DNA of 57,905 nt from Pseudomonadota bacterium (GTDB lineage: Bacteria; Pseudomonadota; Alphaproteobacteria; Ferrovibrionales; Ferrovibrionaceae): assembly GCA_023433835.1 (NCBI GenBank), contig JAEYTW010000741.1:1-57905 (forward strand). The letters run 5' to 3'. The translations under genes were made by a program, and so were the position numbers. The notes below the pieces were generated by a model. The model worked only from the letters and a program-made list of their open reading frames with translations. It did no database searches and was not told the DNA's origin. Of the stretch, positions 10,645 to 52,016 are shown one piece after another. Within the stretch, counting starts at the first letter, position 1. Every line of letters begins with the position of its first letter.

Positions 10645-10659
10645 CCGGAATACTCAAAA

Positions 10660-11505: not shown

Positions 11506-11517
11506 TAGGAGTTGGCG

Positions 11518-36178: not shown

Positions 36179-36439
36179 ATGCGGGGACCACAGGTCAGGG
36201 CGGCGAGGGAGTTGCTGGGTATGAGCCAGCAGGACCTGGCTGCACGCGCCGACGTGTCGGTGTCGACGGTGCGAGACATCGAGAACGGCACGGGAGACCC
36301 GCGGCGTTCCAGCATCGAGGCGATCGAGGATTTCCTGATCAGCCAGGGAATTCGGTTCGTCCAGACGCCGGGTGTCATCGGAATGCCGTTGACCACTCCC
36401 CGAGGTCAGGCTTCATCGATCGACGACCGGGACGACTAG
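36179..36439 (+). CDS. XRE-family HTH regulator
   Basis: 86 aa. LRGPQVRAARELLGMSQQDLAARADVSVSTVRDIENG. Convergent 4-nt overlap with the recombinase gene. Confidence 0.75.
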   Translation: MRGPQVRAARELLGMSQQDLAARADVSVSTVRDIENGTGDPRRSSIEAIEDFLISQGIRFVQTPGVIGMPLTTPRGQASSIDDRDD

Positions 36440-37440
36440 GCGCGGCCCTGCAGCCGGGCCAGGTCGGCCATTGCCGACCGTTCGATCTCGATGTCCTCGA
36501 GATAGGGATGGAGAGAATCGGCGTGCTTGCGCCTCTGCGCCTGCAGCACGCCGGCAAGGTTCATGTTGTTGGCGACCATCTCTTGCGCAGCGCCCACCCG
36601 AAACGAATGGCCGCTATAGCCGTCCCCCAACTCGGCGGCCGCGGCCAGGCGCTTGGCCGTGTAGGAAAGCCCGCGCGAGCTTAGCCGTGGCCCGACATTC
36701 CCCCACCGGTCGATCGACCGGAACAGAGCACCGTCGACCAGCTTCGCTGCTTGGCACCAGGCGTCGATCGCGACCATGGTGTCTCGCGCGATGAAAACGC
36801 GCTCTCTTCGTCCGAACTGGTCAGTCTTGCTCTGCGCAATCAACGCGCTTCCGTTGCCGTTCGCTGCCGGCGAAATGTCATCGATGTCGAGCGCCATCAG
36901 CTCTGATTGCCGAGCGGATAGGTCGTAGGCGAGTAGCGTCATTGCCCGATCGCGAAGGCCTCGCAGGGACGTGTCAGTTGTCCCGTGCATCAAGGTGATG
37001 TGGTTGAGCCAGGCGCCCCGTGCATGCCGCTTTCGTTTGCCCAGCGCGCGGGCAACTCGCTTCATTGCCAGGCCGACGTCGGCAATTGAAGTCGGCGACG
37101 GCAATTTTGCGGCCAGGTGGAGCCGGGCGATCGCCCACACTCGCGTCTGGATCGTCGTAAAGCGGTGCTGGGTGGCCAGGTGGTCGATGTAGTCGACCAC
37201 AACCTCCCAGCGCGCCGGCACCGCCGGCGCCTGCCTCGTGGCAGCGAACGAGATCCATCGTTTTAATCCGGTGATCCACGCGGCCAGTGTGTTGCCCGCG
37301 GCGACACCGCGCGACGCCACAAGGTATTGCGCGTATCGGGCGCAGAGCTCCTGATCGCCGCCAGCGGCGATGTTCAGCAATCGGCGCAACACCTCGGCCG
37401 GGTCTTTGGCAACCTGCTTATGTTCACTTTCAGCGGTCAC
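36436..37440 (-). CDS. rci: tyrosine site-specific recombinase, predicted shufflon recombinase (Rci-like)
   Basis: 334 aa. Catalytic-region motifs LSARQSELMALDIDDI (Arg), GHSFRVGAAQEM (HxxR), and a C-terminal LHPYL Tyr. Immediately adjacent to the inverted-repeat cassettes at the pilV 3' end. The tyrosine recombinase call is firm (0.9); the Rci role is inference. Confidence 0.8.
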   Translation of the reverse strand: MTAESEHKQVAKDPAEVLRRLLNIAAGGDQELCARYAQYLVASRGVAAGNTLAAWITGLKRWISFAATRQAPAVPARWEVVVDYIDHLATQHRFTTIQTRVWAIARLHLAAKLPSPTSIADVGLAMKRVARALGKRKRHARGAWLNHITLMHGTTDTSLRGLRDRAMTLLAYDLSARQSELMALDIDDISPAANGNGSALIAQSKTDQFGRRERVFIARDTMVAIDAWCQAAKLVDGALFRSIDRWGNVGPRLSSRGLSYTAKRLAAAAELGDGYSGHSFRVGAAQEMVANNMNLAGVLQAQRRKHADSLHPYLEDIEIERSAMADLARLQGRA

Positions 37441-37453
37441 CGATGAACCGACT

Positions 37454-37463
37454 TGTAATTACA
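37454..37463. promoter_or_regulatory. TGTAATTACA box 4, just upstream of the recombinase start
   Basis: Read directly. Lies 14-23 nt upstream of the start at 37440. The flank TGTAATTACATAATCGC resembles box 3 (TGTAATTACAAATCGC). Confidence 0.55.
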
Positions 37464-37618: not shown

Positions 37619-37637
37619 TAAACCGCTTTATTGCGAT
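37619..37637 (+). repeat. shufflon crossover repeat, copy 1 (TAAACCGCTTTATTGCGAT)
   Basis: Identical 19-mer to copy 2. Encodes KPLYCD in frame with cassette C. Confidence 0.8.
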
Positions 37638-37850
37638 AGAGCATCAAGCACATTCTCGACTATGGCTAGTCGAGCAACGATCAGTTTTGCGGTAAAAACA
37701 TGGGCACAGAACGGCTGGACAAGTCAGGCACCAGCCTGCCCAGTAGATAGTTTCGAGGCGACCCCTTCATATATTTCGGAAGTAATATACGATCCCGCGA
37801 CAGGGTGGCTTATTCACTATACACGGTGGTGCTGGAAGTACGTTAATTAG
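37638..37850 (+). other. silent alternative PilV C-terminal cassette C
   Basis: The frame continues from the repeat: (KPLYCD)RASSTFSTMASRATISFAVKTWAQNGWTSQAPACPVDSF...YTRWCWKYVN, stop at 37848-37850. No independent RBS or start at the repeat. Low GC. Confidence 0.7.
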
Positions 37851-37898
37851 CCAATGAATCCAATTCTCGAGATTTCGGTTTCATTATACCATTTTCGG

Positions 37899-37917
37899 TA
37901 AACCGCTTTATTGCGAT
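37899..37917 (+). repeat. shufflon crossover repeat, copy 2
   Basis: TAAACCGCTTTATTGCGAT. With flanks, 37897-37916 is a 20/20 inverted match to 38462-38481. Confidence 0.8.
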
Positions 37918-38220
37918 TCAGGAAGTTCAACCTTCCAGCAGGTGGCAGGAGGTGGCGGAACGTTCCCCCATACTTGCCATGAGGCTTTCCCGTCAGGCTT
38001 CTTGCAGTTCTTACCTGCATATTCGGATCCGGCGATTGCCACGGCTGGCCCCGACGGGTTCTATAGCTCATGGGGCTTCACTACCTGCAATCCGCCGGCT
38101 TGCCCGACCGGAACAACCCAAAGGGCGCCGAAAACCTGCCAAGGTGTTTCGATTATGAATACCCCTGGCAACTATTATCCCACCTATTCGTCCTATCAGT
38201 GCACAATATGGTGCGGATAA
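37918..38220 (+). other. silent alternative PilV C-terminal cassette B
   Basis: (GKPLYCD)SGSSTFQQVAGGGGTFPHTCHEA...CNPPACPTGTTQRAPKTCQGV...YQCTIWCG, stop at 38218-38220. This is 3 nt from the convergent stop of the expressed segment. Paralogous to expressed segment A. Confidence 0.75.
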
Positions 38221-38223
38221 AGC

Positions 38224-39342
38224 TTAGCCGCTGCACCAGCGTTCACAGGTAGCGACATACGTCCAGCAGCCGGAACCGCAGGTGTCATATCGCCAGGCCC
38301 ACGAACATTTCTGCGGACCGCGCTGCGTTTCCGTGGCGTCGCACGCGGGCGGCGTACACATATTATCGAATACGATTCCCATCGCGTTTCCTTCGGCGGT
38401 GCACATGGTTCGACGGGTATAACCGCCGCCGGCGATCGCCTTGAATGTGGCAGACCCTGAGTCGCAATAAAGCGGTTTACCGTCGGCGTCCTGGACCAGG
38501 CCGCCGACGTCGGTCGCGGCGACGCAACTGTCGCCAGCCGCCTTGACCGCCGTTGATCTTAGGTACCCCGCGGTGGTCACATTGCCGCCGCTCAGAATCT
38601 TTCCCGTGGTCGTCACCTGGTTGATGTCAGCGATGCTGTTTCCGCCCAGGGACAGGTCGTGCTGCATGGTGTACGCGGTGGCAGGCATGCCTGGCGTGCG
38701 GTAGAGGTAGTTCGACATGGTTTGCCCCTGTGTGAGGCTGCCATAGACGACCGGCTGCCGCGTCGCCCAAGTGACGCCGGCGCCGGCGAAGTTCGCGGTC
38801 TGAAGGCCCTGGCCTCCTACGATGGTCGCGACGGCCGAGCTGCTGGCTGGGGTATAGCCGCCGCGCGCGCCAACCCGCTTCACGAACTCACCAAGATCGG
38901 CCTCTGGCAGTGCCAGGCCCCCGACAACCGTCGTCACCCATTCCAACTGGCCGGCAGCCGGGCGACGAACCACGGAAACGATCGAGCCTCCATTGATGCC
39001 GGTGACCGGGTCGGAGGCTCCGAGGAGGCTGACGGTCTGCAGCATGGCCGGCGTGATGACGGCCGGAGATCCGCCGGCGCTGGCGATCGCCGCTTCGATC
39101 ACGGAGAAATAGTTCTTCACATACTCGGCCGTTGCGTCCGCCACAATCGATGCCTGCTCGCCCAGAACACGCGCTTCGGACACGCGATCGCTGCGGTCGG
39201 TGCTGCTGATCCCGCTCGTTGCGAGGATGGCGATGACCAGCAGCATCCCGAGCATCTCCATAACGGTTAGCCCGGCTTCCGCTACGCGGCGTGCTCGCTT
39301 GTGGAGAGGGCGACGAGTTTGATCAGGACCTTGTTTCATCAC
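38224..39342 (-). CDS. pilV: PilV-like type IVb minor pilin / tip adhesin with a switchable C-terminus
   Basis: 372 aa. Prepilin leader ...RRVAEAG|LTVMEMLGMLLVIAILA (Glu at +5). Cys-rich C-terminal segment. Last gene of the pil operon. The start (GTG 39342 or ATG 39339) overlaps the pilM-like stop. Confidence 0.8.
   Translation of the reverse strand: MMKQGPDQTRRPLHKRARRVAEAGLTVMEMLGMLLVIAILATSGISSTDRSDRVSEARVLGEQASIVADATAEYVKNYFSVIEAAIASAGGSPAVITPAMLQTVSLLGASDPVTGINGGSIVSVVRRPAAGQLEWVTTVVGGLALPEADLGEFVKRVGARGGYTPASSSAVATIVGGQGLQTANFAGAGVTWATRQPVVYGSLTQGQTMSNYLYRTPGMPATAYTMQHDLSLGGNSIADINQVTTTGKILSGGNVTTAGYLRSTAVKAAGDSCVAATDVGGLVQDADGKPLYCDSGSATFKAIAGGGYTRRTMCTAEGNAMGIVFDNMCTPPACDATETQRGPQKCSWAWRYDTCGSGCWTYVATCERWCSG
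38462..38479 (-). repeat. shufflon crossover repeat, copy 3 (inverted, inside pilV)
   Basis: TCGCAATAAAGCGGTTTA is the reverse complement of TAAACCGCTTTATTGCGA. It encodes GKPLYCD of the expressed PilV, 79 codons before its stop. Confidence 0.8.
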
Positions 39343-39845
39343 GCACCCGTGTAGGAGAGCAGGACGGCAACGCCATCCGGCACTACGATTGGAAGGACGA
39401 TAGGGGTTGTTCCTGCAGCGGCCCGAATGGGCATCACCGTGCCTGCTCTGGCGATGCCAAATGCCATGTCAGCGCCGCCGGCCTCATAGATCGCCGATCC
39501 CAGCCAGCCCGATCCGGCTCCACCGGGTAGGGCGCCGCCCACATAGGTGACGACCGCCCGGCCAGGCCCGGACGACCCGGATACGATCGAAATCCACGGC
39601 CCCATCTTGACGAAGGATGCTGCGTAAGGCGCCACCATCCCAGCCGCGGCCTCCGCATCGGTCGCGGTCCCGGAAAACGAGGCCTGGCCTGATGACTGGG
39701 CGAAGGCGAGCACGCCCTGGTGATAGAGCAACATGTTCACGGCCAGGGAGCCGATCTCGGCCCGAGGCGACCACGCCATCGTCGTCTCTTGAGGGACGCC
39801 CGTCATGTTCAGGAAATAGGCCAGCACCAGACCGATTAAGTACAT
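39339..39845 (-). CDS. PilM-like (R64-type) pilus biogenesis protein
   Basis: 168 aa. N-terminal TM helix, Gly/Ala-rich body ending TPIVLPIVVPDGVAVLL, as I recall for R64/ICE PilM. Position is next to pilV. Confidence 0.45.
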   Translation of the reverse strand: MYLIGLVLAYFLNMTGVPQETTMAWSPRAEIGSLAVNMLLYHQGVLAFAQSSGQASFSGTATDAEAAAGMVAPYAASFVKMGPWISIVSGSSGPGRAVVTYVGGALPGGAGSGWLGSAIYEAGGADMAFGIARAGTVMPIRAAAGTTPIVLPIVVPDGVAVLLSYTGA

Positions 39846-39849
39846 ATCC

Positions 39850-40938
39850 TCACCTCACCATCAGCTTGGTGCCGTTGCGCAGCGACGACGTCCATTTCTG
39901 GACCATCGCCGGAAGCAGTTCCAGCCGGCCCGACCGGATCGTCGACCTGATGGGGCAGTCGGGAGTCAAGCTGCATTCGATGGCCTCAACGATTTCGATC
40001 GCCAGGCTTTCACCAGCTCCCTGAGGCGCCAGCCGCGTCATGACCGCCGCTCGCAACGATATCGCCAGTAGATCAAGCGCCGCGTGCCCACGATGCTCGC
40101 CGGCAAGCCGTGCGACCTTCGAAAGACCAGCGGTCAGGTCAAGTCCGTGGCCTGTGGCCAACACAAGGGGGCCATTTGCACCGCAAGTCAGCGTAGCGTT
40201 CGCTGTCGCCGGCGTGCGGTATTCACCGATCAGGACATGTCGGACGCCAGACCGCATGACCCGCTGGATCTGCCCCGGGAATTCATCCTCGTCGGAAAGG
40301 TCACATTGGAGGATGCGAGCTTCGCTCGTCGCTTTCCGCCGAGCATCGTCGGCCATAGCGACCTTACCACCGAAGGTCCCCCAGCTCGGTCTCGCTTCAT
40401 GGCCGGCCGATAGATCCAGGACATTTTCGACGGGCGCTTCCAAGGTCTGAGCTGCAAGTCCAGACATGCCGACCCAAGACATCAGCATTGCCCCTGCAAG
40501 GGTGGTCTTCCCGCTACCCATGTCACCCAGAACAAGGACGAGGCCGGTACTGGCCGCGCCGTCCGGCGATGGTTGGGCCAGGCCAGCCAGCCAGGTCTGC
40601 CAAACCGGCGGAACGCCGATTTGGTCGAGCCGCAATGCTGGCTGCCGCGAACGCCGCAGGTACAACGCGTGACCGTCGATGTTCTCGAACAGCGTGATGC
40701 GATATCGCTGGCCATCGTGACCAACAGCATATTCCCGGCGCAGGTCCGACTGTGGGGGCAAGGCCGCGACGAGCTTGGCTAGATCCGGCAAAGCTGCAGC
40801 TGGCAGCTCCCGATCGCGAAACCGACCTCCCGAGGAATCTCGCGCAGTGGGCGCCCAGCGATCGGATAATCGCCAGGCGCCCCCAACGAGATCAAGAGGA
40901 AGAGTGAGCGATGTCAGCTCACTGTCTGCCAGCCGCAT
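39850..40938 (-). CDS. PilT/BfpF-like secretion ATPase (second ATPase of the pilus operon)
   Basis: 362 aa. Walker A LVLGDMGSGKTT. RYRITLFENIDGHALYLRR (PilT-like N-domain). VLIGEYRTPATANATL...GPLVLATGHG (Asp/His-box region). Confidence 0.65.
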   Translation of the reverse strand: MRLADSELTSLTLPLDLVGGAWRLSDRWAPTARDSSGGRFRDRELPAAALPDLAKLVAALPPQSDLRREYAVGHDGQRYRITLFENIDGHALYLRRSRQPALRLDQIGVPPVWQTWLAGLAQPSPDGAASTGLVLVLGDMGSGKTTLAGAMLMSWVGMSGLAAQTLEAPVENVLDLSAGHEARPSWGTFGGKVAMADDARRKATSEARILQCDLSDEDEFPGQIQRVMRSGVRHVLIGEYRTPATANATLTCGANGPLVLATGHGLDLTAGLSKVARLAGEHRGHAALDLLAISLRAAVMTRLAPQGAGESLAIEIVEAIECSLTPDCPIRSTIRSGRLELLPAMVQKWTSSLRNGTKLMVR

Positions 40939-40941
40939 GGT

Positions 40942-41505
40942 TCATTTCGCGGTGAGACGAATTGCATTGAGAGCCGTGGCGCACGCGCCGTCGGCGGTCG
41001 TCAGGCTGACTGGTACCGCAGTCGAAGTCGCACTGGCCACCGAAGCTTGCGTCGCGGCTACCTGGACCGCACTCGTGAACGATCCGGAGCTCAGTTTCGT
41101 CAGAATGGCGATGCAAGATTCCTTGGGAATATTATCTCCGTCGACGTAGAAAGTGCTGTTGGCGCCAGTAACGACGTACTGGCCGGAGAATGGGTTGACG
41201 AGCGACGTTCCGCTGATCGCCCCGTCCGGCGCCGCTTTTGCGTTGATGAGGGACGACGAGCTGATAACGGCAGTGCCATATCGTGTATTTGCCGGCTGCG
41301 ACCGATACTGCGATTTGACGCCCGAGATGATGTACTTGACGTCATCCATATAGCGCGTCTCGTCGAGCCATTCGGTGAGCTTGGAAAAACCGTAGGCGCC
41401 CATCGTGCCCAGGATGCCGACGACGATTAGGACACCCAGCATCTCCATGACGGTAACACCGGCCTCATTGGCGAGCGTACGGCGGAGGCTCTTGTTCATG
41501 AGCAT
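40942..41505 (-). CDS. pilS: type IVb major prepilin (PilS-like)
   Basis: 187 aa. Long leader MLMNKSLRRTLANEAG|VTVMEMLGVLIVVGILG with Glu at +5. C-terminal Cys pair. Confidence 0.8.
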   Translation of the reverse strand: MLMNKSLRRTLANEAGVTVMEMLGVLIVVGILGTMGAYGFSKLTEWLDETRYMDDVKYIISGVKSQYRSQPANTRYGTAVISSSSLINAKAAPDGAISGTSLVNPFSGQYVVTGANSTFYVDGDNIPKESCIAILTKLSSGSFTSAVQVAATQASVASATSTAVPVSLTTADGACATALNAIRLTAK

Positions 41506-41517
41506 GTCAATTTTCCT

Positions 41518-42672
41518 TTACCGGATTGAATTGTTTGCGGCCATTACGACTGCGACGCTGCCGATCACCTGCAGGATGAACATGAGCATCATCAGTGCCT
41601 CGGCGAAGAGCGCGACGCGCGTGGCGCCGCGTTCAATGTCGGCCAGCGCCTGCTTCGCTTTGTCATCGGCGATGGAGTGCAAGGTTTCCACGAAGGCGTC
41701 ACCGCCGCGGTCGGCTGCCAACCCGATCGGCATCGCCGATGTCGGAGAGAGCAAATAGATGTTGGTATGTTCGAGCCCCTCTCTGACGCCGGCGCCGTCG
41801 ACCTGGTCAGCATATGCCTTGAGCCTGATTCTTGTGTACCGGCCGGCCGTGTCGGCCACAGCGCGCAGGGCGTCAACATTGTTCACGCCAAGTCCTGCTA
41901 GCATCGCCCAGCCGCGTAGGAATGTGATCTCGCCCAAAGCGCGCTGGATCGAGAATGGCGGAAGCCAGAAATCGACGAGCACGCGTGATCGGCCATTCCA
42001 GACCTGGATGACGAGCCATAGCAATCCGAGCAACAGGAGCGGCGCCAGCAGCACCAGCAGCCAATGATCCTGCACGAATTGCAGGCTGCTGATGTATCCG
42101 CGCGCAGCTGCTGACCCTTCGATGCGCGCATAGAGGCTCGGCTTCGTATAGGTCGGAACCACCTTGCCCGCCGTGTACACTGTCGAGCCGAGCATCATCA
42201 GCGAGTAGAAGACGGTCTTTCCGAGGGGCTTGATGCCCTCGGAGAGTGCCCTCGCGCGTTCACGGCCGTCTTTCGCTATCGTGCGGAGCACGGTGGCGAG
42301 AGTGGCAGTGCCTCGAGATTCCGCAAGGCTGATTGAGCCCAGTTCTGACTTCGGTATCAAGCCGGCAAGTGCTGGCGGCCGCCCGCCCGCGTCCATGCGT
42401 GCCAGGAACGAGCCATCCTCAAGCCTTTTCGCGATAAGATCCGCGACCGATGCCAGGTGCGACTGCCGGAGGATCCACGGTCCACTCTGGGCGGCCGTTG
42501 CCAGGTGGCGAGCCGTCGTCGCCGGGTCGGCGCCGGCCAGAAGGGCCGACGCCAGCTCATTGTAGACCATGTATCTGGTGGACCGGCCGAGGCGGCCAAA
42601 TGAGGCTTTGGAGGCCGCGGCCAGCAGGCTCCGCCGGGGCCTCAGGAGTTCGATATCCGCTCGCGTTGTCAT
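41518..42672 (-). CDS. pilR: GspF/PilC-family platform protein (PilR-like)
   Basis: About 384 aa from the ATG at 42672 (1 nt after the ATPase stop). Polytopic with three hydrophobic segments and a cytoplasmic helical domain. Canonical position after the ATPase. Confidence 0.6.
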   Translation of the reverse strand: MTTRADIELLRPRRSLLAAASKASFGRLGRSTRYMVYNELASALLAGADPATTARHLATAAQSGPWILRQSHLASVADLIAKRLEDGSFLARMDAGGRPPALAGLIPKSELGSISLAESRGTATLATVLRTIAKDGRERARALSEGIKPLGKTVFYSLMMLGSTVYTAGKVVPTYTKPSLYARIEGSAAARGYISSLQFVQDHWLLVLLAPLLLLGLLWLVIQVWNGRSRVLVDFWLPPFSIQRALGEITFLRGWAMLAGLGVNNVDALRAVADTAGRYTRIRLKAYADQVDGAGVREGLEHTNIYLLSPTSAMPIGLAADRGGDAFVETLHSIADDKAKQALADIERGATRVALFAEALMMLMFILQVIGSVAVVMAANNSIR

Positions 42673-42673
42673 C

Positions 42674-44353
42674 TCAGCCCACCTTCGCGGTTGCGATGAA
42701 CGGCGCCCGTGGCGTCCGCCAGAAGGGGACAGGTGCAATCGATGCCGCGTCCAGCGGGTCGATCATGCCGGCGTTCGCCTTCTCCCACGCGTGGTCGAGC
42801 AGCCGCATCTTGCTGGCGGGTACGTCCGATCGGCTTTCGACATATTGGTATAGCTCTTGGGCCTGGCTCGGGCCGGCGGCGATCAGCTCGAGGACTCGCG
42901 CGTCCGTCAGGACCATCTCGGCGACGAGTTCCCGGCGGACCGTTCCGGTACCGCCGCAGGTCGTGCACGGTTCCGAACTATTTTGCTCGACAGTCCCGTG
43001 GGCCCCGCGAACGAAGATCTTGTTGCGGTCGAGCTCGGCCGCGATCGCGGGCCCATAGGCTTCGATCGCCCTCTCGATGCGAGCAACATCCCGGTGGTTT
43101 CGCCGGCGGATATCGACCAATGGGACGCGGCAGTCCGGACAGAGCCGCGGCAGCAACGCCTGGCCCCCCAACAGGCGAGTGAGGCGACGGTCGTAGACCA
43201 GGCCGGGATCGACACCGAGATCGTTCGTTAGCCGACGGGGAATCTGAAGTGGTTCGTCGCTATGGATCGAGCCCACAACCCAGATGCCGGACACACCCGT
43301 CCGGTAGACCATCGACCCGGTCGACTGATTGCGGGTTTCACCCACCATGACCTTGTGCGGCCGGCCGCGCAGAACTTCGCGAAGACGCTCTGCGAACCCA
43401 AGGCGCAACGCGGGGTCTGCATCCTCGTTGGCGACCAGGCGGCGAGCGCCCTTGATCGGTATTTCCGGGGGATCTTCCACCATGTACTGGTGCTTGCGCC
43501 AGCCGTAGTGTTCCTGGATCGCGCGCATGACCGCGGCCAGCGTGACGGTTTTGCCGCTACCCGTCTGGCCCGTGAGCCATATGACCGCCGAACGCCAGTG
43601 GATGGCCTCAAGCCAGATCGCCAGGTGGTCGGGGTGAAGGCCCAGCTTATCGATGCTATGAGCCCAGTCCGAGCGAACCAGCCGTATCACGACGCTCAAA
43701 GCGTCGGCTTCGCTGAAGAACTGGCACCTGATGGCTTCGAGCTTCTTGAAGGCCGCCCGGGTCTGGTCGCCATGGGCGTGCTTCATCAGCTGGCTATGGC
43801 TGGCGGTGGCCGTCGGATTGCTGATTTCGTCGAGCGATCCGAATTTCTGATCGCAAATTGCATTCCATAACAGATTGCGCCACGTGCTTGCGGTTCGTCG
43901 GTCGAGCGGCTTCGGATCGGTCAGTTCATCTGCAATGCAGAACTGATAGGCGGCATCCTGCCCGTTTCTCGTGAGAACGAGAATGATCTCCTCGGCGTCG
44001 CTCGTGACAGCGGTGACGAACAGGTTGATCAATTGCTCGAGCTCGGTGCTCTGCCGGCTCACGCGATCGAGTGCACCACCGTAGAGTGCCGCGACCTGGT
44101 TGGGGTCGACCTTGATGAGAGCACTGGATATAAGCCCCGCGTTGGAGACCTTCGAGCGGATCGATGTCAGGAGGGACGGCGGTGCCGAGCTCGACTGGAC
44201 GATGATGACGTTCAGTGTGCCGGGCGAGCCGGCTTCGGCCGGCCTAATGACTGCAAAATGCGTGCGTTCGTCCGCCGACAGCGAAATGCTTCCGCCCGCG
44301 GCCGTCAGCAGGTCCCCTTCAGGCAGAATGCTCGAGGTCGCGAACTGATTCAC
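42674..44353 (-). CDS. pilQ: GspE/PilB-family pilus assembly ATPase (PilQ-like)
   Basis: 559 aa. Walker A LTGQTGSGKTVT. VMVGETRNQSTG, WVVGSIHSD. Tetracysteine motif CPDC...CTTCGGTG. GTG start overlaps the pilP stop. Confidence 0.85.
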   Translation of the reverse strand: MNQFATSSILPEGDLLTAAGGSISLSADERTHFAVIRPAEAGSPGTLNVIIVQSSSAPPSLLTSIRSKVSNAGLISSALIKVDPNQVAALYGGALDRVSRQSTELEQLINLFVTAVTSDAEEIILVLTRNGQDAAYQFCIADELTDPKPLDRRTASTWRNLLWNAICDQKFGSLDEISNPTATASHSQLMKHAHGDQTRAAFKKLEAIRCQFFSEADALSVVIRLVRSDWAHSIDKLGLHPDHLAIWLEAIHWRSAVIWLTGQTGSGKTVTLAAVMRAIQEHYGWRKHQYMVEDPPEIPIKGARRLVANEDADPALRLGFAERLREVLRGRPHKVMVGETRNQSTGSMVYRTGVSGIWVVGSIHSDEPLQIPRRLTNDLGVDPGLVYDRRLTRLLGGQALLPRLCPDCRVPLVDIRRRNHRDVARIERAIEAYGPAIAAELDRNKIFVRGAHGTVEQNSSEPCTTCGGTGTVRRELVAEMVLTDARVLELIAAGPSQAQELYQYVESRSDVPASKMRLLDHAWEKANAGMIDPLDAASIAPVPFWRTPRAPFIATAKVG

Positions 44354-45114
44354 AAGCGGTCTCCCCAGCGAACCAGCTTCGTTACTTTTCCCGGTTGCGT
44401 GACAGTGACGCCTGCTCGGTCGATCGCGGACACGCGACGACCGCCAGGCAGGACCTCACCGATTGCGAAGAGGGCTTCCCGAGCATCCACGTAGAGCCTC
44501 GCACGGAGCCCGCGTACCTCCGGTGCCCCGGAGTAGCCCAAGGCGATCACGATCGGTTCTGCTGGGGGTGCAGCCGGCGCCGTGGGGGCGGATTTGACCT
44601 GGTCCTTCGGCGTGGCAATGCCTGCCGTGATCCGCACCGATGACAACTTCGCTGCGTAGCGCCGATCCGCCCACTGCTCGAGCCTGACGAGCATCGATCC
44701 GGCCGGCGGTAACATCAGGTCGGCCGGCGGCGGCGGCACTGGCTGCGGCGCGGTGTTTTCGGCGTTCGCCGCCGGCCTTTCGGTCCCGATTGTCTCCTGG
44801 GGCAGTTTCTGTTCGATTGGCTGGCTAGGTGGAGCCGCCGATGGTGACAAGGGCCAGATGTCCGGCGGTGGGGGTGGTGCTGCCGCTGTCTGCGGCGCAA
44901 CCGCCGGCGTTGCCGGCGGCGGCGCGAACGACGCGCCTATCGGCGGTGCATTTGCGCCAGTTGGCGATACCGGAATTCCGAGCATGGGAGGTGGCAGAAG
45001 CGAACGGGGTTCCCCCGCCGAGCTCGTCGGGCCAAAAGACGGCATGTCGCCCGCGAGCGCCGGAGACACGGTCATGATGATCGTCGCACCGACGAGAAGG
45101 GCTTTAGCGGTCAT
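44350..45114 (-). CDS. PilP-like pilus biogenesis protein
   Basis: Signal/TM MTAKALLVGATIIMTVSPALA. Long Pro/Ala-rich spacer. C-terminal beta domain ARLYVDAREALFAIGEVLPGGRRVSAIDRAGVTVTQPGKVTKL. Confidence 0.55.
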   Translation of the reverse strand: MTAKALLVGATIIMTVSPALAGDMPSFGPTSSAGEPRSLLPPPMLGIPVSPTGANAPPIGASFAPPPATPAVAPQTAAAPPPPPDIWPLSPSAAPPSQPIEQKLPQETIGTERPAANAENTAPQPVPPPPADLMLPPAGSMLVRLEQWADRRYAAKLSSVRITAGIATPKDQVKSAPTAPAAPPAEPIVIALGYSGAPEVRGLRARLYVDAREALFAIGEVLPGGRRVSAIDRAGVTVTQPGKVTKLVRWGDRL

Positions 45115-46657
45115 TGACGGAGCCCTTAATGCCCCAGGCGACATCCTGGCCTCGACGATCCATGGTCAGGTCCGTGATGGCGGTGCCAGGCACAGCCAGC
45201 AGGCGTGCCCGCCATGCCTCGGGACCGATCGGCGAATTATCGATGCTGAAATCCATTGATTGCTCTGCGGGCCCCTGAGCTGCTGGCGTGGCCCCCGGGA
45301 GAACAGCTGCTGGAATGGCAGCGGATGTGCCGCCTCCGACCGGAATTGCTGCGCGGAGGCCGTCCTGGAGTATCCGCTGCCTGCGGGCAACGACAGGCGC
45401 GAGATCGGCAAGCCGATCGTCGGCGGCAGCGGACGAAGTTGCCCGCGGGAGTCGTGATCGAGCACCTATCGACGCCGACCGCCCGTCTGGGCTCCACGAC
45501 ACGAAGCGGTCAGCGCCAATCACATCCCTGGGGCGAGCCGCCGGCGGCGTAGCGTCCGCAACGGAGGCGATGGCCCGGGCGAGCACCTCTGGAAAGATCC
45601 GGCCGTCGGTTGTGGCTTGCGCCTGCCACTCGATCGACCATTCGAAGCCGTCCTCAAGGTCGTCGAAATCCGCCCGAGGTATGACCTGACACGTGGCTCT
45701 CTGCCATTGCCACCCTGCGGCCATCGTCGCGGATCCTGGCACGGCGATGTCGAGCCAAGGCGCCCAAGCAGACCTGCAACGGTCGATAACCCAGCCTGGC
45801 GCTGGCCAGCGGGCGCCGCCGACGGGAACCGGCTTGGGCGGCGGCGGCGGCTCGACAGCCACCACTTCCACGGGCTTCGGCTGGAATAGCCGGAACGTCT
45901 TAAGAACGACCGGTGTCGTGATGACGGCCCCGACCACCAGCGCCGCGATGCTCACGGCGGCGACCAGGCGCTTCGCGGGGAGGGCTGGAGACACCACGGC
46001 GCCGCGGCCGAGAACGAGCCGTGCGGCGCGCTCTGTGATGGGATCGCGGCTGTCGATCTCCGTGAGGAGCGGTAGCAGATCGACCCGGGTGAAGCCAGGC
46101 CAGTCCCATGCACAAAGCCGTTTTGCCTGAGCGCCGACGGATAGGAAGGCTTCGTCGAACTTCAATTTCAGGAATTCGAGCCAGGCCGCGTCAGTCATGT
46201 CGGCCGTGCGGCGGAGCACCACGTCTTCAATGACGATGCCGCCACCCACGACAATCAAAACCGCGCGCCCTGGCAACACTGCGGCGTCGGCCATCCCTGC
46301 AACTCGAGGCTGATCGTCCGGGAGCGGCCATATCCCGGCAAATGAATATGCCATCTCACGGGCGAGCATCGCAGCGCCCGCCAGCCACTGGCTACCGGGT
46401 GGCGTAGACCTGGGCCCATCGACCTTGGCCACGCCATAGCCGCCCACGGCACCGGCCCGGTACCAGGCCATCGCCGACGCTCGCGTGCTGCGCGCGGCCG
46501 CAGCCGCTTCACGGCGCGCTTTGCCGGCCGCGCTCTCGCTGGCCCAGCGCAGCCCGAACACGACCTCGATCGGCTTCCTGGCCTTTAACCGGACGATGGT
46601 GAGGGCTGGGAGGTCGGCGTTGGGCTCTATCGCTGGCCGGAGGGCCTTGGCCAGCAT
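45104..46657 (-). CDS. PilO-like (type 4b PilO2) pilus biogenesis protein
   Basis: ATG at 46657, 1 nt after the secretin stop. N-terminus TIVRLKARKPIEVVFGLRWAS fits my recollection of PilO2. One central TM helix (LVAAVSIAALVVGAVITTPVVL). Confidence 0.5.
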   Translation of the reverse strand: MLAKALRPAIEPNADLPALTIVRLKARKPIEVVFGLRWASESAAGKARREAAAAARSTRASAMAWYRAGAVGGYGVAKVDGPRSTPPGSQWLAGAAMLAREMAYSFAGIWPLPDDQPRVAGMADAAVLPGRAVLIVVGGGIVIEDVVLRRTADMTDAAWLEFLKLKFDEAFLSVGAQAKRLCAWDWPGFTRVDLLPLLTEIDSRDPITERAARLVLGRGAVVSPALPAKRLVAAVSIAALVVGAVITTPVVLKTFRLFQPKPVEVVAVEPPPPPKPVPVGGARWPAPGWVIDRCRSAWAPWLDIAVPGSATMAAGWQWQRATCQVIPRADFDDLEDGFEWSIEWQAQATTDGRIFPEVLARAIASVADATPPAARPRDVIGADRFVSWSPDGRSASIGARSRLPRATSSAAADDRLADLAPVVARRQRILQDGLRAAIPVGGGTSAAIPAAVLPGATPAAQGPAEQSMDFSIDNSPIGPEAWRARLLAVPGTAITDLTMDRRGQDVAWGIKGSVNDR

Positions 46658-46658
46658 G

Positions 46659-48542
46659 TCAGCCGCCGCCTCCTTGGGCCGTCGCGTCCGTTGCAACCCT
46701 CGCGGCCGAACCACTCGCCGGCTCGTCGTCGACCTGTAGCGGTGTAACGAGCAGGGCGAACCGTTGGCGCTTGCGCATGGCGTTCTCGCCACCGCCGAGG
46801 ATCCAGTTCCAGAACCAACCGACGCCTGACTCGTTGAGCACCCGGCGATCTTGTGCGAAGCCCGTGATCACGAAGGTGTCACCCGACCGCACAACCGGAA
46901 ACTGCCCGGTGGCCTGATTCGTCTGATCCGGGCTCTGCAGCGTGATGCTGCCGGCGCCCTGCCCGGAAGTCACGGGGACGAAGGTAGCGTCGCTGGCATT
47001 CGAATAGCCCAGGGCCAGCGAAATCCGCCCGTCATCCAGGACGCGCGGGATCGCGATCATGGTGTAGCCGCTCAGCGCGAAAGACAGGCTGGCGCCGCCG
47101 GACAATGTGGCGGTGCCAGTGCTCGTTGCGCCCGTGACGCTTCCGAGATAGCCCTGGCTTCGGGCGTTGGTCAGGGACACCGGTGTGTTCGACAAGGTCG
47201 TCACAGCGGTCGAGTATTCTACCGACAATCGGTTGTTCGCACTGAGGGCCTGCAGCGCCGCTTTCGTGCCGGCCCATTTCTGGGCTGCGGACGATGCGTT
47301 CGAGGGCGGCGGTGAGATGAAGCCTGTGCTGTAGGAGCCAGTCCCGGTCACATTTGAGAGTGCCGACGGCCCGGTGAACGCCACCTGAAATCCGGCGTCC
47401 TGGAAAGTCGCCGCCAGGTCGAGCGCATATGCATCCTGCTGATCGGATTCATAGGAGACGATCGCCAAGTTGACCGTCACCTGGCGGCTGGCGACGGCGC
47501 GAAGCTTCGAGACGATCGGTTCAACTCGATCCATCACATCGCGCGGCGCGGTGATGATCACGTCGCCAGTTGAGGGCATGAGCGCAAAGTCGCCTTCCGG
47601 CACCATGCTCTCGAGGGCCTTCTGCAGATCAGCCCACATCTTCGTCGAGGCCTCTGCCGTCATCTGCTGCAGAGACGACCCGCCGCTTGAGCTGCTGCGG
47701 GAACCGCTACCCGAGCTACCAGACCCTCCGGATGATGAAGAACCGGAATTACTTGAACCGGACCCGCCTGACGACCCGCCCGCCATCGAGCCCCCGCCGG
47801 TCGTGCCGATGAGCGTAGTCGCCTCGACAGACTGGGCGGGGAAGGTCCAACTCCGGGTCACATACCGAGACAGCCGAATTGCACCCCGATTGAATTCCCA
47901 GCTGCACCCAAATGCCGCGGCGAGGTAATCGGCATATCCTGACGCCGGACCGACGTAAGACGGCACGATGGCATTGGCCTGGCCATATGAGGTTACCGGC
48001 GCGCCTGGTAAGGCGGGGCCAGCACCAGGTGGCGCGAGCGGGTTCCCGGCATAGGCACCAAAGGCCTGCGGCAGACCTGCTGCGACGGGCCCCAGCGGTG
48101 CCGCCGCTGTCCCCGGCGTCGCGGCGGCCGTAGTCGTTGCGGCCAGGCCGCGCCGTGCCGCCGGCGGAGAACCGCACCCGTCGACAAGCCGCATCGCGAT
48201 TCCAGTTTCTGCCGTGAAGCGGCTCGCGAGCTGCTGCAGCGAGAACGGGGACGTTTCCCCGATCTGGTATCCCTTCTGGGTCTCGACCTTCTCCGGGAGC
48301 TTCGGCCGGATCGTCTCGCGAATAACAACGCCGCCGCCATACGGGCGGTCCACCCGGCGCATGACCGGGTTCACCGCCCGGTCGATGTTCTTCGCGGCCT
48401 GAACGGCTGCGTCGGCCTTCTTCATGTCGCCTGGCAAGGCTTCCTGATTGGATTTGTAGGTTTCGCAGGAGACCAGGCCCAGGGCTGCGACGGCGGCAAC
48501 CGCGGCCCTGAGGCGCGCGCGATTATTCATCGACCGGGACAT
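46659..48542 (-). CDS. pilN: lipoprotein secretin (PilN-like)
   Basis: Lipobox AALGLVSC. C-terminal secretin domain (...FPVVRSGDTFVITGFAQDRRVLNESGV...RFALLVTPLQV). Ser/Gly low-complexity insert. Start at 48542 or 48530; the track start at 48611 overlaps pilL by 89 nt. Confidence 0.8.
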   Translation of the reverse strand: MSRSMNNRARLRAAVAAVAALGLVSCETYKSNQEALPGDMKKADAAVQAAKNIDRAVNPVMRRVDRPYGGGVVIRETIRPKLPEKVETQKGYQIGETSPFSLQQLASRFTAETGIAMRLVDGCGSPPAARRGLAATTTAAATPGTAAAPLGPVAAGLPQAFGAYAGNPLAPPGAGPALPGAPVTSYGQANAIVPSYVGPASGYADYLAAAFGCSWEFNRGAIRLSRYVTRSWTFPAQSVEATTLIGTTGGGSMAGGSSGGSGSSNSGSSSSGGSGSSGSGSRSSSSGGSSLQQMTAEASTKMWADLQKALESMVPEGDFALMPSTGDVIITAPRDVMDRVEPIVSKLRAVASRQVTVNLAIVSYESDQQDAYALDLAATFQDAGFQVAFTGPSALSNVTGTGSYSTGFISPPPSNASSAAQKWAGTKAALQALSANNRLSVEYSTAVTTLSNTPVSLTNARSQGYLGSVTGATSTGTATLSGGASLSFALSGYTMIAIPRVLDDGRISLALGYSNASDATFVPVTSGQGAGSITLQSPDQTNQATGQFPVVRSGDTFVITGFAQDRRVLNESGVGWFWNWILGGGENAMRKRQRFALLVTPLQVDDEPASGSAARVATDATAQGGGG

Positions 48543-49317
48543 CAGATCCTCCGACGGCGCTGATCGCCAATGTGTTGGTATAAAGCGTCCCGATCGGGCG
48601 AGCCGGGACATCGGCCCAGCCCGACAGCAGGTATGGCACCGCGTCGGTGAAATAGCCTTCGCAGCGAATGGTCGCCTTCAGGGGATAGCGCAGTCCTCGA
48701 GCGTGCCAAGCGAGGTCAAAGAGCTCGGGATCGCCGAGATCCTGCTTGATGGCATCCACCCACGACGCCAGTGACGAATGCAGGTCAGATCCTTGACGCG
48801 CGCTCCACACCCGCCAGCGGCCGATCGGCCGAGGATCTTCCTCGCCAGGTCGGGCGCACAGCGTCATACGATTGTCGGCCGACGCGGGCTCGGCCGCCGC
48901 CGAAGCCGGGGGCGGTTGGACAGCGGCAGACGCGACCGCTGCGACCAGTGGCTGGTTGGGGACAGCTGGAACAGAGCCGGCAGGGGCTTGATCGGCTGGC
49001 CCGATCCACAGCATGCCGGCGGCGCCTTCGACCGCGGCCAAGCCAGCGGGCGAGAGCATTGCGGCCAGGCTTCGCCGCCAGCTCGGGCCACCGCGCCACG
49101 AGACCTTCAATTTGCGGTCAACCACCGCGCTGATCTCGACCGCTACTGCGGGGGGTACGATCTGGTAGACGGCCAGCTCGAGCGGGACACCAGAGGCGAA
49201 GCCCGCAACCGGCCCATCCGTTGCAGCTTGGTTGGCCGAGCGTGCTGCCGGCTGATGCAGAGCAACGGACAGAACAATGCCGAATGCGACGGCTTTAGCG
49301 GACATTGGTCGCACCAA
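48523..49317 (-). CDS. PilL/TcpQ-like pilus biogenesis protein
   Basis: 264 aa. Signal peptide. C-terminal region QGSDLHSSLASWVDAIKQ...WHARGLRYPLKATIRCEGYFTDAVPYLLSG resembles the TcpQ/PilL domain. Confidence 0.5.
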   Translation of the reverse strand: MVRPMSAKAVAFGIVLSVALHQPAARSANQAATDGPVAGFASGVPLELAVYQIVPPAVAVEISAVVDRKLKVSWRGGPSWRRSLAAMLSPAGLAAVEGAAGMLWIGPADQAPAGSVPAVPNQPLVAAVASAAVQPPPASAAAEPASADNRMTLCARPGEEDPRPIGRWRVWSARQGSDLHSSLASWVDAIKQDLGDPELFDLAWHARGLRYPLKATIRCEGYFTDAVPYLLSGWADVPARPIGTLYTNTLAISAVGGSDVPVDE

Positions 49318-49447
49318 AAAGTTTCGGTTTCGGCATGTACCAGCTGTCGATCGGGTCGAGATCCCGTTCCCGGCCTGAACCGAGCAGACCGAGTAACGCG
49401 ATAATCGCCGTGATGACGGCGACCTGTTTCCAGGTGACGTTTCCCAT
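49295..49447 (-). CDS. small single-TM protein (50 aa), below the ORF-track size cutoff
   Basis: Hand translation: MGNVTWKQVAVITAIIALLGLLGSGRERDLDPIDSWYMPKPKLFGATNVR. AGGGAAA 6 nt upstream. Fills the gap between two pil-operon genes. Confidence 0.35.
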   Translation of the reverse strand: MGNVTWKQVAVITAIIALLGLLGSGRERDLDPIDSWYMPKPKLFGATNVR

Positions 49448-49457
49448 GATCGTTTCC

Positions 49458-50429
49458 CTAGCTCACGATCTCGCCGCGATCGCAGGCGACGACGTAGCTG
49501 GCGCCCCGCATTTGGATCGCTTTGACCCGGCCGTAGCCTGGGATCGTGTCGCCGACGGCGACTTGACGAAGGTCGCCGTCGGGCCCTTTGGAAATCCAGG
49601 CCCTGTTGCCTGCAACAGCGCGCAGCACCTGCCGCGCACCGGCTGACGGAGCCTTGCCCGCGTCCGGTGCCGGCGGAATCGGTTGCGCGCTGATCGGTTT
49701 GGTCAGCGCCGCCGGCGCTGCCGGTGTGGGTGCGGGCGCCGGCGCAAATACCGAGGTCGACTCAGTCGGGGGCACCAGATTGCGCGGCGTCGACGCTGCC
49801 GGCGGTGCCAAGGCGGCGACGGTGACACCGATAGGGCTCGGTGCGGCCGCCGCGGTCTGTACAGGAGAAGATGGCTGCGCGAAGGAAACCAAACTCGTGG
49901 CTTGGCTTTGCGACGCCGGGGGGATTACGGCACTGACCGCGGCGCCGATCGGCGTCGGTGGCGGCAATGCGCCGGCGGAGACGATGGGAACCGGTTGCGA
50001 TGCCGACGTCGCCAACGCATCAGGCGCATTCGACACGATGGCGTTGGACCGGGCCTCAAACTTCGCCATTCGGGTTTCGAGAAGTGCGATGCGGCCGGTC
50101 GACGCGTCGACCAACTGCCACAAGCGGCGCAGCTGGTCGGCAACCTGCAGGCTGATATCTGGATAGGCACCCGCCACGGGCGAGGGGGCGGCCGTGGCGG
50201 GTGCCACTGGCGACGGTAGGCCGCCAGACCACAAAACGCAGGACATCGCGATCGCCGCAAAACCGCAGATGATCGGTCGAGGGTCGCGGACCATCACCAG
50301 CCGGATTTCGGCCGCAAAAATGCGAGCCGTCCGCCTGGTTCCGGTCCACATCCAATAGGGTCCGGCCGCGCCGGTGCTGCGCCGGAGCTTCCCGGTTCCG
50401 CCGGGTGGCGACGTCGTCATGCCCGTCAT
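49458..50429 (-). CDS. first gene of the pilus operon: bitopic protein with coiled coil, Pro/Ala-rich spacer and PilP-like C-terminal beta domain
   Basis: ATG at 50429 with RBS GAGGGGGA; the longer track ORF to 51011 overlaps the divergent LysM gene. TM helix PIICGFAAIAMSCVLW. C-terminus NRAWISKGPDGDLRQVAVGDTIPGYGRVKAIQMRG. Confidence 0.55.
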   Translation of the reverse strand: MTGMTTSPPGGTGKLRRSTGAAGPYWMWTGTRRTARIFAAEIRLVMVRDPRPIICGFAAIAMSCVLWSGGLPSPVAPATAAPSPVAGAYPDISLQVADQLRRLWQLVDASTGRIALLETRMAKFEARSNAIVSNAPDALATSASQPVPIVSAGALPPPTPIGAAVSAVIPPASQSQATSLVSFAQPSSPVQTAAAAPSPIGVTVAALAPPAASTPRNLVPPTESTSVFAPAPAPTPAAPAALTKPISAQPIPPAPDAGKAPSAGARQVLRAVAGNRAWISKGPDGDLRQVAVGDTIPGYGRVKAIQMRGASYVVACDRGEIVS

Positions 50430-50526: not shown

Positions 50527-51552
50527 ATGAGTGAGGGGATGGGTGGTTCACCGGTGACCACCGGTGATGTTGACGAGCCGGGGCGGCGCCGGCGCCGGGG
50601 CCAGCAGCCCGGCAATGATTCCGCAGGGACGGATGGTGCGCGGAGCACAAAGCGGGGTGCTGCGGCCGACAACGTCGCGCCCTCGACAAAGCGGATGCGT
50701 GAAAAGCGTGCCATCCAGCGCGCAGCAGGGATTGAGCGGGCCGAGTACCTGGTCACCCCGGCCGAGCGTGTTGCGCTCGACATGGCACTCCAGCAATTTC
50801 GACAACCGCCGGAATCCACCGCCGCCCGTGGGAATGCTCCCGAAGCGGAAGCGACCGCTGCGGCCGAGGTCGCGCGACTCAGAATTGCAAATGACGAAAC
50901 TGCCCTACGGGAGGAGGCCGGCGTCCCAGCACGCCCCATCGCCGGCGTATCTCGTCTAATCCCGCGGTCAACCGAGGCGCGCCAGGCGTGGTTGATGCTG
51001 TTCGTATGCATTGCTGCTTTGGCCGGTGTCTTTGGATCCGCGGTGTCAAGTGCGGGTCCTGCTGCCCTATTTCTCGCCTGGATCTTCTACGGCCAGATGT
51101 CTGCCTCGGCGCCTGGTCGTGTCGGCGGGAGCCTGTTCATGCTGGGCCTGGCCCTCGCTGTCTATACGCTAGGCATGCTGTCCGTGCGTGGCGATGCCGC
51201 CCAGGCCCCGATCGACGACTGGCGGACAACAGGCCTATCCTTGCTGTGGAGCGAGCCGGGGGCGTTCAATAGCGCCGCGGGTCGCCATAATGGCGAGGGA
51301 ACTGCCGATGAAGCTCGCCTTCTCATGCTGGGAGGGCAGCTGGCCGAAATCTCGTCGCTGGTAGGCGCGGATATTCGGCCGGACCGAATAGCGCGCCTCA
51401 TCATGCTCGACAAAGCGGTGTCGCTAGAGGACTTGGCCGGGTGGGCCGGGACGAACGTCGATCGCATCGTGGCGCTGAACCCGACGGCGGAACAAACCGT
51501 CCCCGCAGGCGCCGTTGTCGCCATCCCTTTCATATCGAGCAGCAGGAGGTAG
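50527..51552 (+). CDS. membrane protein with a C-terminal LysM-like domain
   Basis: About 341 aa (alternative TTG at 50467). Basic N-terminus, four hydrophobic helices. C-terminus SLEDLAGWAGTNVDRIVALNPTAEQTVPAGAVVAIPF is LysM-like. Confidence 0.55.
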   Translation: MSEGMGGSPVTTGDVDEPGRRRRRGQQPGNDSAGTDGARSTKRGAAADNVAPSTKRMREKRAIQRAAGIERAEYLVTPAERVALDMALQQFRQPPESTAARGNAPEAEATAAAEVARLRIANDETALREEAGVPARPIAGVSRLIPRSTEARQAWLMLFVCIAALAGVFGSAVSSAGPAALFLAWIFYGQMSASAPGRVGGSLFMLGLALAVYTLGMLSVRGDAAQAPIDDWRTTGLSLLWSEPGAFNSAAGRHNGEGTADEARLLMLGGQLAEISSLVGADIRPDRIARLIMLDKAVSLEDLAGWAGTNVDRIVALNPTAEQTVPAGAVVAIPFISSSRR

Positions 51553-51554
51553 AG

Positions 51555-52016
51555 ATGTCCCGGAAGCAGCACGCATTCAATGTGCACGTGGCGCGTAAAG
51601 TTCAGGAGCGACGGCGTGTCATGGGATTATCCCAGCGCCAGCTGGCGGACGCCATCGGCGTTACTTTCCAGCAGGTTCAGAAATATGAGAACGGTTCGAA
51701 CCGTATGGACGCGGCGCGGCTGGTCATGGTGGCGGCCGCGCTCGCAGTTCCGCCGCAGTGGTTTTTCGAAGGTTATGATGCTGACGGCACCGCCGCGGCC
51801 GTGCTGCAGCAATTCGATGAAGACAATCTGTTCGAGCACCGCGAGGCGCTGACATTGGTCCGAGCCTTTCGCCGCGTCGGGAGCCAGGACCTGCGCGACC
51901 GTATCGTCCACCTCGCTGCCGCGGTTGCAGATTCAGAGAGCGGTCATGACCATTTCCAGATCATACGCGCGGCGGAATCGAGCTCGATGAGCCTCCCGGC
52001 CGAGGCGGCCGAATAG
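51555..52016 (+). CDS. XRE-family HTH regulator
   Basis: ATG at 51555 with RBS AGGAGG. VARKVQERRRVMGLSQRQLADAIGVTFQQVQKYENGSNRM. Confidence 0.8.
   Translation: MSRKQHAFNVHVARKVQERRRVMGLSQRQLADAIGVTFQQVQKYENGSNRMDAARLVMVAAALAVPPQWFFEGYDADGTAAAVLQQFDEDNLFEHREALTLVRAFRRVGSQDLRDRIVHLAAAVADSESGHDHFQIIRAAESSSMSLPAEAAE

Follow-up and report, generated by a model that had tools for sequence, protein, structure and literature searches.

What kind of pilus is encoded beside a conjugative mating channel in this alphaproteobacterium, and is it as unusual as it looks? The stretch of DNA analysed here (the window) is 57,905 bp long and comprises an entire contig (C483), the longest of 824 in a 7.87-Mb assembly that is itself a metagenome bin (89.7% complete, 6.3% contaminated). 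An earlier note on this DNA described twelve packed genes at 38224-50429 on the minus strand as a complete, R64-like type IVb thin-pilus operon and pointed to three departures from R64: a second ATPase in place of pilT, two proteins with PilP-like domains, and no prepilin peptidase. I conclude, with a probability of roughly 85%, that these genes specify a thin conjugative pilus of class IVb and of the pil2 type, known from PAPI-1 and pA506, and that it sits on a plasmid-like conjugative element with a divergent VirB/Trb-type type IV secretion system (T4SS) resembling mating-pair formation (MPF) type MPF_T. The GC content of the window, 0.639 as against 0.68 for the genome, is consistent with a mobile element. 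The ends of the replicon lie beyond reach in so fragmented an assembly, and the absences reported below apply to the assembled DNA.

All twelve minus-strand open reading frames (ORFs) are present where the earlier note had placed them. With plausible start codons, neighbouring genes either lie 1-12 nt apart or overlap by 4-23 nt, and the set thus looks like a single operon. Curated profiles identify six of the genes, namely the secretin, a T2SSE ATPase, a T2SSF platform protein (weakly), PilS, a PilT-family ATPase and PilM. Small profiles that I built from six annotated plasmid operons and searched against all 370 ORFs of the window place each expected gene (PilV, PilR, PilL/TcpQ, PilP and PilO2) at the top of the list. 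Judged by sequence, eight genes are firmly those of a type IVb pilus: PilL/TcpQ, PilN, PilQ, PilR, PilS, the PilT/BfpF-like ATPase, PilV and, at the family threshold, PilM. The identities of PilO and PilP are weak, and the first gene of the operon and a 50-aa gene behind it have no family assignment. Furthermore, five of the pil genes show ratios of nonsynonymous to synonymous substitution (dN/dS) of 0.04-0.14 against a metagenomic relative that is 93-98% identical and has the same gene order, which marks them as live genes. Tight-adherence (Tad), type II secretion and chromosomal type IVa pilus readings are excluded, the best matches of the secretin, pilin and minor pilin all being type IVb PilN, PilS and PilV, and the type IVb conjugative-type assignment made in the earlier note is borne out by these family matches.

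The secretin and its partner open the recognisable part of the operon. The PilL/TcpQ-like protein (48523-49317, minus strand, as are all twelve genes) matches the Pfam TcpQ family at 16.9 bits, below the cutoff, and is ranked first among the 370 ORFs by the self-built PilL/TcpQ profile (E = 1.6e-10); in a phmmer comparison with the TcpQ protein of a Bosea plasmid the E value is 6.8e-13. PilN (46659-48611), whose start probably lies 70-80 nt inside the ORF, is a lipoprotein secretin of the PilN family. Its best match is TIGR02520 at 186 bits, under the equivalog cutoff of 287.65 bits; its Secretin and Secretin_N_2 domains exceed their cutoffs, an LVSC lipobox is present, and its identity to the PilN proteins of plasmids is 24-29%. 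Elsewhere in the assembly (contig C805, 11839-14338) there is another PilL/PilN pair, whose members share 68% and 78% identity with those of the window. It is not followed by the genes from PilO to PilV; its neighbours encode a hybrid histidine kinase and a GAF-PucR regulator, the GC content of its contig is chromosome-like at 0.671, and the pair is best described as an orphan secretin pair.

The motor, platform and pilins follow. PilQ (42674-44353) is an assembly ATPase of the PilB/GspE class (T2SSE, 114 bits, with GspE, PilB and other family matches) that carries the four-cysteine motifs CPDC and CTTC and has a dN/dS of 0.13 against the metagenomic relative. The platform protein PilR (41518-42672) falls below the T2SSF cutoff at 21.2 bits and is ranked first of the 370 ORFs by its self-built profile (E = 3.6e-20); at the same position the relative has a gene called at 384 aa, and dN/dS is 0.05. 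The major type IVb prepilin, PilS (40942-41505), scores 42.4 bits for PF08805 against a cutoff of 22, is 33% identical to the PilS of Azospirillum plasmid p5 and has a dN/dS of 0.04. The small membrane protein resembling PilM2 (39339-39845) reaches 25.2 bits for PF07419, whose cutoff is 25. Its self-built mini-profile was not significant, and the assignment follows from the Pfam match at threshold together with a C-terminal motif, LP..VP.G..V, common to pA506 PilM2 and the Azospirillum counterpart; PF07419 is also recorded in a 96%-identical relative of the protein, and dN/dS here is 0.14. The last gene, PilV (38224-39342), encodes a minor prepilin and adhesin with a cysteine-rich, switchable C-terminus. 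It is ranked first by its self-built profile (E = 3.3e-26), and phmmer relates it to PilV2 of pA506 (7e-16), PilV of Azospirillum (6e-15) and PilV of IncI2 plasmids (3e-7). Both pilins have a class III leader of the G|xTxxE form that the earlier note had read in them, G|VTVME in PilS and G|LTVME in PilV.

Between the secretin and the motor lie two proteins whose families are far harder to recognise. The bitopic protein at the PilO2 position (45104-46657) is an orphan at the level of sequence: it has no match in Pfam or NCBIfam, and phmmer, run exhaustively against 1.84 billion representatives, found nothing besides the protein itself. A language-model search, on the other hand, gave nothing but PF06864 PilO clusters as neighbours (score 0.95), and the self-built PilO2 profile ranks the protein first, with collinear matches and a weak E value of 1.7e-4. 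A single-sequence AlphaFold model had a predicted local distance difference test score of 38.7 and was unusable. The protein at the PilP position (44350-45144) has a signal peptide, a proline-rich linker and a C-terminal PilP-like domain. It has no curated family match in Pfam or NCBIfam and is ranked first by the self-built PilP profile, again weakly (E = 5e-5); its C-terminus aligns with the PilP-position proteins of Azospirillum and Bosea at z scores of 5.5-5.9.

Is there, then, a second PilP-like protein, as the earlier note proposed? The domain in the PilP-position protein has the weak scores just given, and the one in the first gene of the operon is plausible but weak. That gene (49458-50429) encodes a bitopic protein of 323 aa, counted from an inner ATG, with one transmembrane helix (residues 246-266 of the long ORF) and a linker rich in proline and alanine; the codon-position GC signal supports the frame only as far as about 50430. 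It has no Pfam match, its match to the C-terminal part of IcmG/DotF is weak (E = 0.005), and its likeness to PilP proteins is confined to a short C-terminal motif (z = 3.4-4.2). Atlas searches with this protein and with the PilP-position protein gave unnamed clusters or hints of type II secretion C and B proteins under a useful score. The 50-aa protein encoded next (49295-49447) has a single hydrophobic, membrane-spanning segment at residues 4-27 and belongs to no family. In the operons of the Bosea, Azospirillum and Cupriavidus plasmids the upstream proteins are unrelated to either of these two, and no counterpart of the 50-aa gene was found upstream of their TcpQ genes.

Directly after PilS, at the position of pilT, is a hexameric ATPase resembling PilT2 and BfpF (39850-40938; PilT_fam, 60.8 bits), as the earlier note had said. 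It is 27% identical to BfpF over 81% of its length (E = 9e-15), and phmmer relates it to the Bosea protein (2e-24) and to PilT2 of pA506 (7e-19). What might such an enzyme do? Retraction is suggested by its best solved homologues, all of which are PilT/PilU retraction ATPases with PilT itself foremost, and by the annotation of BfpF as a retraction ATPase. Walker A, Walker B and the His box are conserved in the protein, which is under strong purifying selection (dN/dS 0.07 against the metagenomic relative). However, its Asp box reads EAP in place of EDP and it contains a 25-aa insertion, features that would suit an auxiliary pilus-building ATPase or a catalytically weakened one. In PAPI-1, moreover, transfer falls sharply when any one of the ten pil2 genes, including pilT2, is disrupted by insertion (PMC5297154), a result that fits a role in biogenesis as well as it fits retraction; loss of retraction would likewise reduce transfer. 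I consider the auxiliary or weakened enzyme a rather doubtful alternative and take a retraction motor as the working assignment.

If both pilins carry cleavable leaders, where is the peptidase? Neither Pfam nor a self-built profile finds an A24 peptidase frame in the window or on contig C626, a second piece of low-GC DNA described below, in agreement with the claim that the window has none. The wider search called for in the earlier note turned up one A24 peptidase gene in the bin, of the two-domain PilD type (A24_N_bact plus Peptidase_A24), on contig C10, with its nearest named relatives, at about 50% identity, in Rhizomicrobium. The operon can be called "complete" only if a host enzyme is counted. 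No SLT transglycosylase domain was found on the window contig either.

The pilus operon shares its contig with a mating channel. Genes for VirB2-like, VirB3-position, VirB4, two small and VirB9/CagX proteins occupy 740-6356 on the minus strand, and a VirB6/TrbL-like protein is encoded at 11742-13268 on the plus strand (Pfam TrbL, 20.3 bits, below cutoff). The VirB4 protein, the only one in the assembly, scores 277 bits for TIGR00929; its nearest plasmid proteins are 25-28% identical and all alphaproteobacterial. CagX (VirB9) passes its cutoff at 37.2 bits, and the TrbC/VirB2 match is weak. The remaining parts of an MPF_T system are probably on C626 (positions 1-12305), a 12.3-kb contig with a GC content of 0.614 that encodes ParB, ParA, a T2SSE ATPase of VirB11 size, a UvrD helicase, a 932-aa type IV coupling protein and Fic. 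It shows no sequence overlap with the ends of the window; it probably belongs to the same element and carries the rest of the channel. By the usual markers of MPF_T, then, VirB4 and VirB9 are firm and VirB6 and VirB2 weak in the window, with the VirB11-like ATPase and the coupling protein on C626. Thus the VirB-type mating genes reported in the earlier note are indeed present on the pilus contig. Dot/Icm-type (MPF_I) genes were also sought in the rest of the assembly: no TraJ/DotB-type match came near its cutoff, and the best one was on a contig with chromosome-like GC. Two relaxase candidates lie in the window as well, a MobA/MobL protein at 8328-10475 on the minus strand (78 bits) and a second at 18259-20076 on the plus strand with weak MobP1 and TraA_Ti matches. 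PilN, PilL, PilQ, PilR, PilS, PilV, the PilM2-like protein and the second ATPase are encoded together in a single operon, and their contig also carries the genes for VirB2, VirB3, VirB4, VirB9, VirB6 and both candidate relaxases.

The 3' end of the operon has a shufflon (37619-38479) made of three 19-bp recombination sites, with coding sequence for two further, silent PilV C-termini on the plus strand. The repeats lie at 37619-37637 and 37899-37917 on the plus strand and, inverted, at 38461-38479 within pilV. The C-terminus in use is matched by silent paralogous sequence on the opposite strand. Behind each plus-strand repeat an open frame extends the PilV frame from the common residues KPLYCD, giving three in-frame, cysteine-rich C-termini (variants A, B and C). 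Inversion states could be read from contigs of four other public runs, which are 90-99% like this stretch. In one, a 20-kb contig, the segment 37936-38479 is inverted; in another, position 37637 is joined to 38460 on opposite strands; and the contigs of the other two break exactly at the three 19-bp sites. Such states show that the shufflon is active in nature.

A tyrosine recombinase (36436-37440, minus strand; Phage_integrase, 40.6 bits) is the candidate invertase, its gene lying 180 nt from the outermost inversion site. It shows no pairwise similarity to the Rci of IncI2 plasmids (BLASTP, E = 0.36), and the plasmid proteins closest to it, at 35-36% identity, are recombinases of Roseomonas and Methylobacterium. 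Could it instead be the integrase of a chromosomal integrative conjugative element, of which the contig would be a part? The enzyme is a tyrosine recombinase unlike Rci, pil2 operons of the PAPI-1 type are typical of integrative elements, and ARAGORN calls a tRNA-Asp(GTC) at 35856-35953. That call is putative: at 98 nt it is unusually long, it overlaps a minus-strand ORF (35761-36120), and it could be spurious or what is left of an attachment site. With the inversions observed so near the gene, its closest relatives on plasmids, and ParA/ParB and a coupling protein on the contig of similarly low GC content, I regard an integrase in an integrated element as unlikely and a shufflon invertase on a plasmid-like element as the better description. 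One further feature of this region is a palindrome, TGTAATTACA, that occurs four times in the window against 0.2 expected (37454-37463, 10528-10537, 10634-10643 and 17890-17899); the first copy is directly upstream of the recombinase gene, and none is upstream of the pil operon.

How far, then, does this operon depart from known systems? The IncI1 plasmid R64 encodes the same class of machine (pilI to pilV, shufflon and rci) with the same logic of switching the PilV C-terminus. In R64, pilT encodes a transglycosylase and pilU a peptidase. The window operon has neither of these, an ATPase being at the pilT position; R64 moreover has pilM between pilL and pilN and is typed MPF_I, whereas no Dot/Icm-type markers were found in the present assembly. 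IncI2 plasmids (pHNSHP45, TP114 and R721), like the window, combine a VirB-type (MPF_T) channel with a PilN-PilV thin pilus, and they also carry a PilV shufflon with a tyrosine recombinase next to it and a type IA topoisomerase; in pHNSHP45, which is typed MPF_T, the genes for VirB4, VirB9, VirB10, VirB11 and a VirD4-family coupling protein adjoin PilN through PilV and a shufflon integrase. In these plasmids pilS and pilV are separated by genes for a lytic transglycosylase and an A24 peptidase, a second ATPase is missing, Rci has no detectable pairwise similarity to the recombinase found here, and the proteins are 23-25% identical to those of the window.

The pil2 systems fit best. The Pseudomonas fluorescens plasmid pA506, typed MPF_T, carries pilL2N2O2P2Q2R2S2T2V2M2; its pilT2 is annotated as encoding an ATPase, TopB is present and an A24 peptidase is absent. 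The pil2 operon of the P. aeruginosa island PAPI-1 likewise has the PilT2 ATPase at the pilT position and lacks a pilU peptidase. The gene order agrees through T2; thereafter both have pilV2 before pilM2, whereas the window has M before V. In the sources a shufflon is neither annotated nor described for either of them. The channel of PAPI-1 is of the genomic-island type (GI-T4SS), and pA506 has a lytic transglycosylase after pilM2. Plasmid p5 of Azospirillum argentinense (NZ_CP032326) has the identical order TcpQ/PilL-N-O2-P-Q-R-S-T-M-V, with M before V as here, is typed MPF_T, has a homologue of the ATPase at the pilT position and, like the window, has no A24 peptidase in the operon. It supplies the best plasmid matches (PilN 28%, PilS 33%, PilV 32%, the T-position protein 29%). 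It differs in that its proteins are just 25-33% identical to those of the window, in having no shufflon-type inverted repeats at pilV and no adjacent recombinase, and in lacking counterparts of the first two genes. The Bosea plasmid has the same set of pil genes, including the second ATPase, and no shufflon-type repeats were found at pilV in the Azospirillum or Bosea relatives.

The three differences from R64 are accordingly standard features of the pil2 type, and a VirB-type channel beside such a pilus is already known from the IncI2 plasmids, pA506 and Azospirillum p5. With these precedents and PAPI-1, R64 turns out to be the wrong nearest neighbour. The gene inventory of the earlier note is sound, and its presentation of these features as departures from known systems is not. 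The operon reveals no new kind of system, each supposedly unusual feature having a precedent in a sequenced plasmid or island. What is unusual here is the divergence of the proteins, PilO being a sequence orphan, and a working three-way PilV switch whose neighbouring recombinase does not resemble Rci. Of some interest too are the combination of a PilT-like ATPase with an active shufflon and the two leading genes, which are specific to this lineage.

By analogy with these systems a working model can be proposed. The divergent proteins at the PilO and PilP positions would form the inner-membrane alignment complex, and the single PilD-type peptidase of the host (on C10) would cut the prepilins. 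PAPI-1 and Tfp7 of Burkholderia pseudomallei likewise have no pilU2, and PAPI-1 PilS2 is matured by the chromosomal PilD (PMC3984277, PMC8565334). The assembled pilus would capture recipients and stabilise mating pairs in liquid, and the PilT2-like ATPase would retract it. IncI2 plasmids depend on their pilus for liquid mating and for mating in the gut (PMC7508951, PMC9045228), and all ten pil2 genes of PAPI-1 are required for transfer, insertions in any of them lowering it (PMC5297154). The adjacent tyrosine recombinase may invert DNA at the three 19-bp sites and so exchange the three PilV C-termini, the one in use setting which recipients are recognised.

A pilus of this class might also serve mainly in adhesion, aggregation or colonisation, as do the bundle-forming pilus, the toxin-coregulated pilus and the PilS pilus of Salmonella Typhi, and merely ride on the element while being dispensable for DNA transfer. 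BfpF of the bundle-forming pilus and PilT2 are equally close to the T-position ATPase, a link between R64-type pili and biofilm formation has been described (PMC3984277), and there are related PilN/PilO2/ATPase operons on Escherichia coli plasmids that have no shufflon and possess their own peptidase. However, the present operon has transfer genes around it, its PilV shares homology with the PilV/PilV2 adhesins of conjugative systems, and the plasmids that carry its nearest relatives are conjugative and of type MPF_T. It also carries a shufflon, a device that selects recipients in R64 and IncI2 plasmids (PMC9045228). A pilus devoted chiefly to adhesion is thus very improbable, and a conjugative thin pilus is the reading I retain.

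Several points nonetheless weigh against the conjugative interpretation. The role of the pilus in conjugation is argued from analogy, and the closest plasmid homologues are less than 35% identical, so that any carrying over of function is approximate. PilO and PilP are identified by weak scores and the first two genes belong to no family. The altered Asp box and the 25-aa insertion mean that activity of the second ATPase is not assured. Finally, the assembly is a bin, in which the presence of C10 and C626 in the same cell or replicon is not proven, and a peptidase or a second channel could be encoded on unassembled DNA.

Where else does this lineage of pili occur? The pil proteins are less than 35% identical to anything in plasmids or the sampled genomes, and no plasmid PilN is more than 29% identical to the one found here. 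Among 400 genomes sampled from the same class, 45 contained a PilN match, the best at 34% identity, and none of the three from the same family did; this tally takes in one unpublished genome (G040), on which no claim rests. A megablast search of plasmids with the operon gave no match, and a related-locus search of genome contigs with PilQ gave no relative. In a word-based protein search PilQ found one relative at 98% identity, with all others at or below 34% over partial alignments. The near relatives are in metagenome assemblies only, from wastewater, rhizosphere and other samples. The bin contains no rpoB gene, and the hint at the host's taxonomy comes from the nearest named homologues, which are in Rhizomicrobium for PilD and in Roseomonas, Methylobacterium, Azospirillum and Sphingosinicella for the element's genes.

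The remaining genes of the contig add a backbone and some cargo. A type IA topoisomerase resembling TopB (52716-55097, minus strand; Topoisom_bac, 170.9 bits, plus Toprim) is 24% identical to that of IncI2 plasmids (E = 6e-29). TopB genes are annotated on both pHNSHP45 and pA506, and the topoisomerase is a backbone gene common to IncI2 plasmids and pA506. Directly upstream of it, near the contig end, is a gene for an 879-aa protein (55110-57749, minus strand) whose only recognisable part is a DUF5710 domain. Divergent from the pil operon and upstream of it is an Xre-type helix-turn-helix protein (51441-52016, plus strand; HTH_3, 45.8 bits), which is a possible regulator of the operon; a scan for promoters and terminators upstream of the operon gave nothing useful. 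Between the transfer modules lie cargo or maintenance genes: a Y-family polymerase with IMS domains and a small partner encoded upstream of it (27584-29295, minus strand), and, all on the plus strand, a phospholipase D (PLD)-like nuclease (33594-34157), an ATP-dependent DNA ligase without its N-terminal part (35027-35746) and an SprT-like protease (26351-27049).

I would suggest, as a tentative view that falls somewhat short of an even bet, that this lineage joins a pil2-type pilus, with its PilT-like and probably retracting ATPase and its dependence on a host peptidase, to an active IncI-style PilV shufflon, a combination of features that have until now been met separately. Under such a history the recombinase would have been recruited independently of Rci, the operon would begin with a second PilP-like membrane protein peculiar to the lineage, and PilO would have diverged beyond recognition by sequence. 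The operon extends the family of conjugative type IVb pili into a deep, uncultured alphaproteobacterial lineage from wastewater and rhizosphere metagenomes, and the pairing of a thin pilus with a VirB-type channel is common outside the enterobacteria. It is a natural case for asking whether conjugative thin pili retract, and whether the switching of recipient choice can evolve with a recombinase other than Rci.

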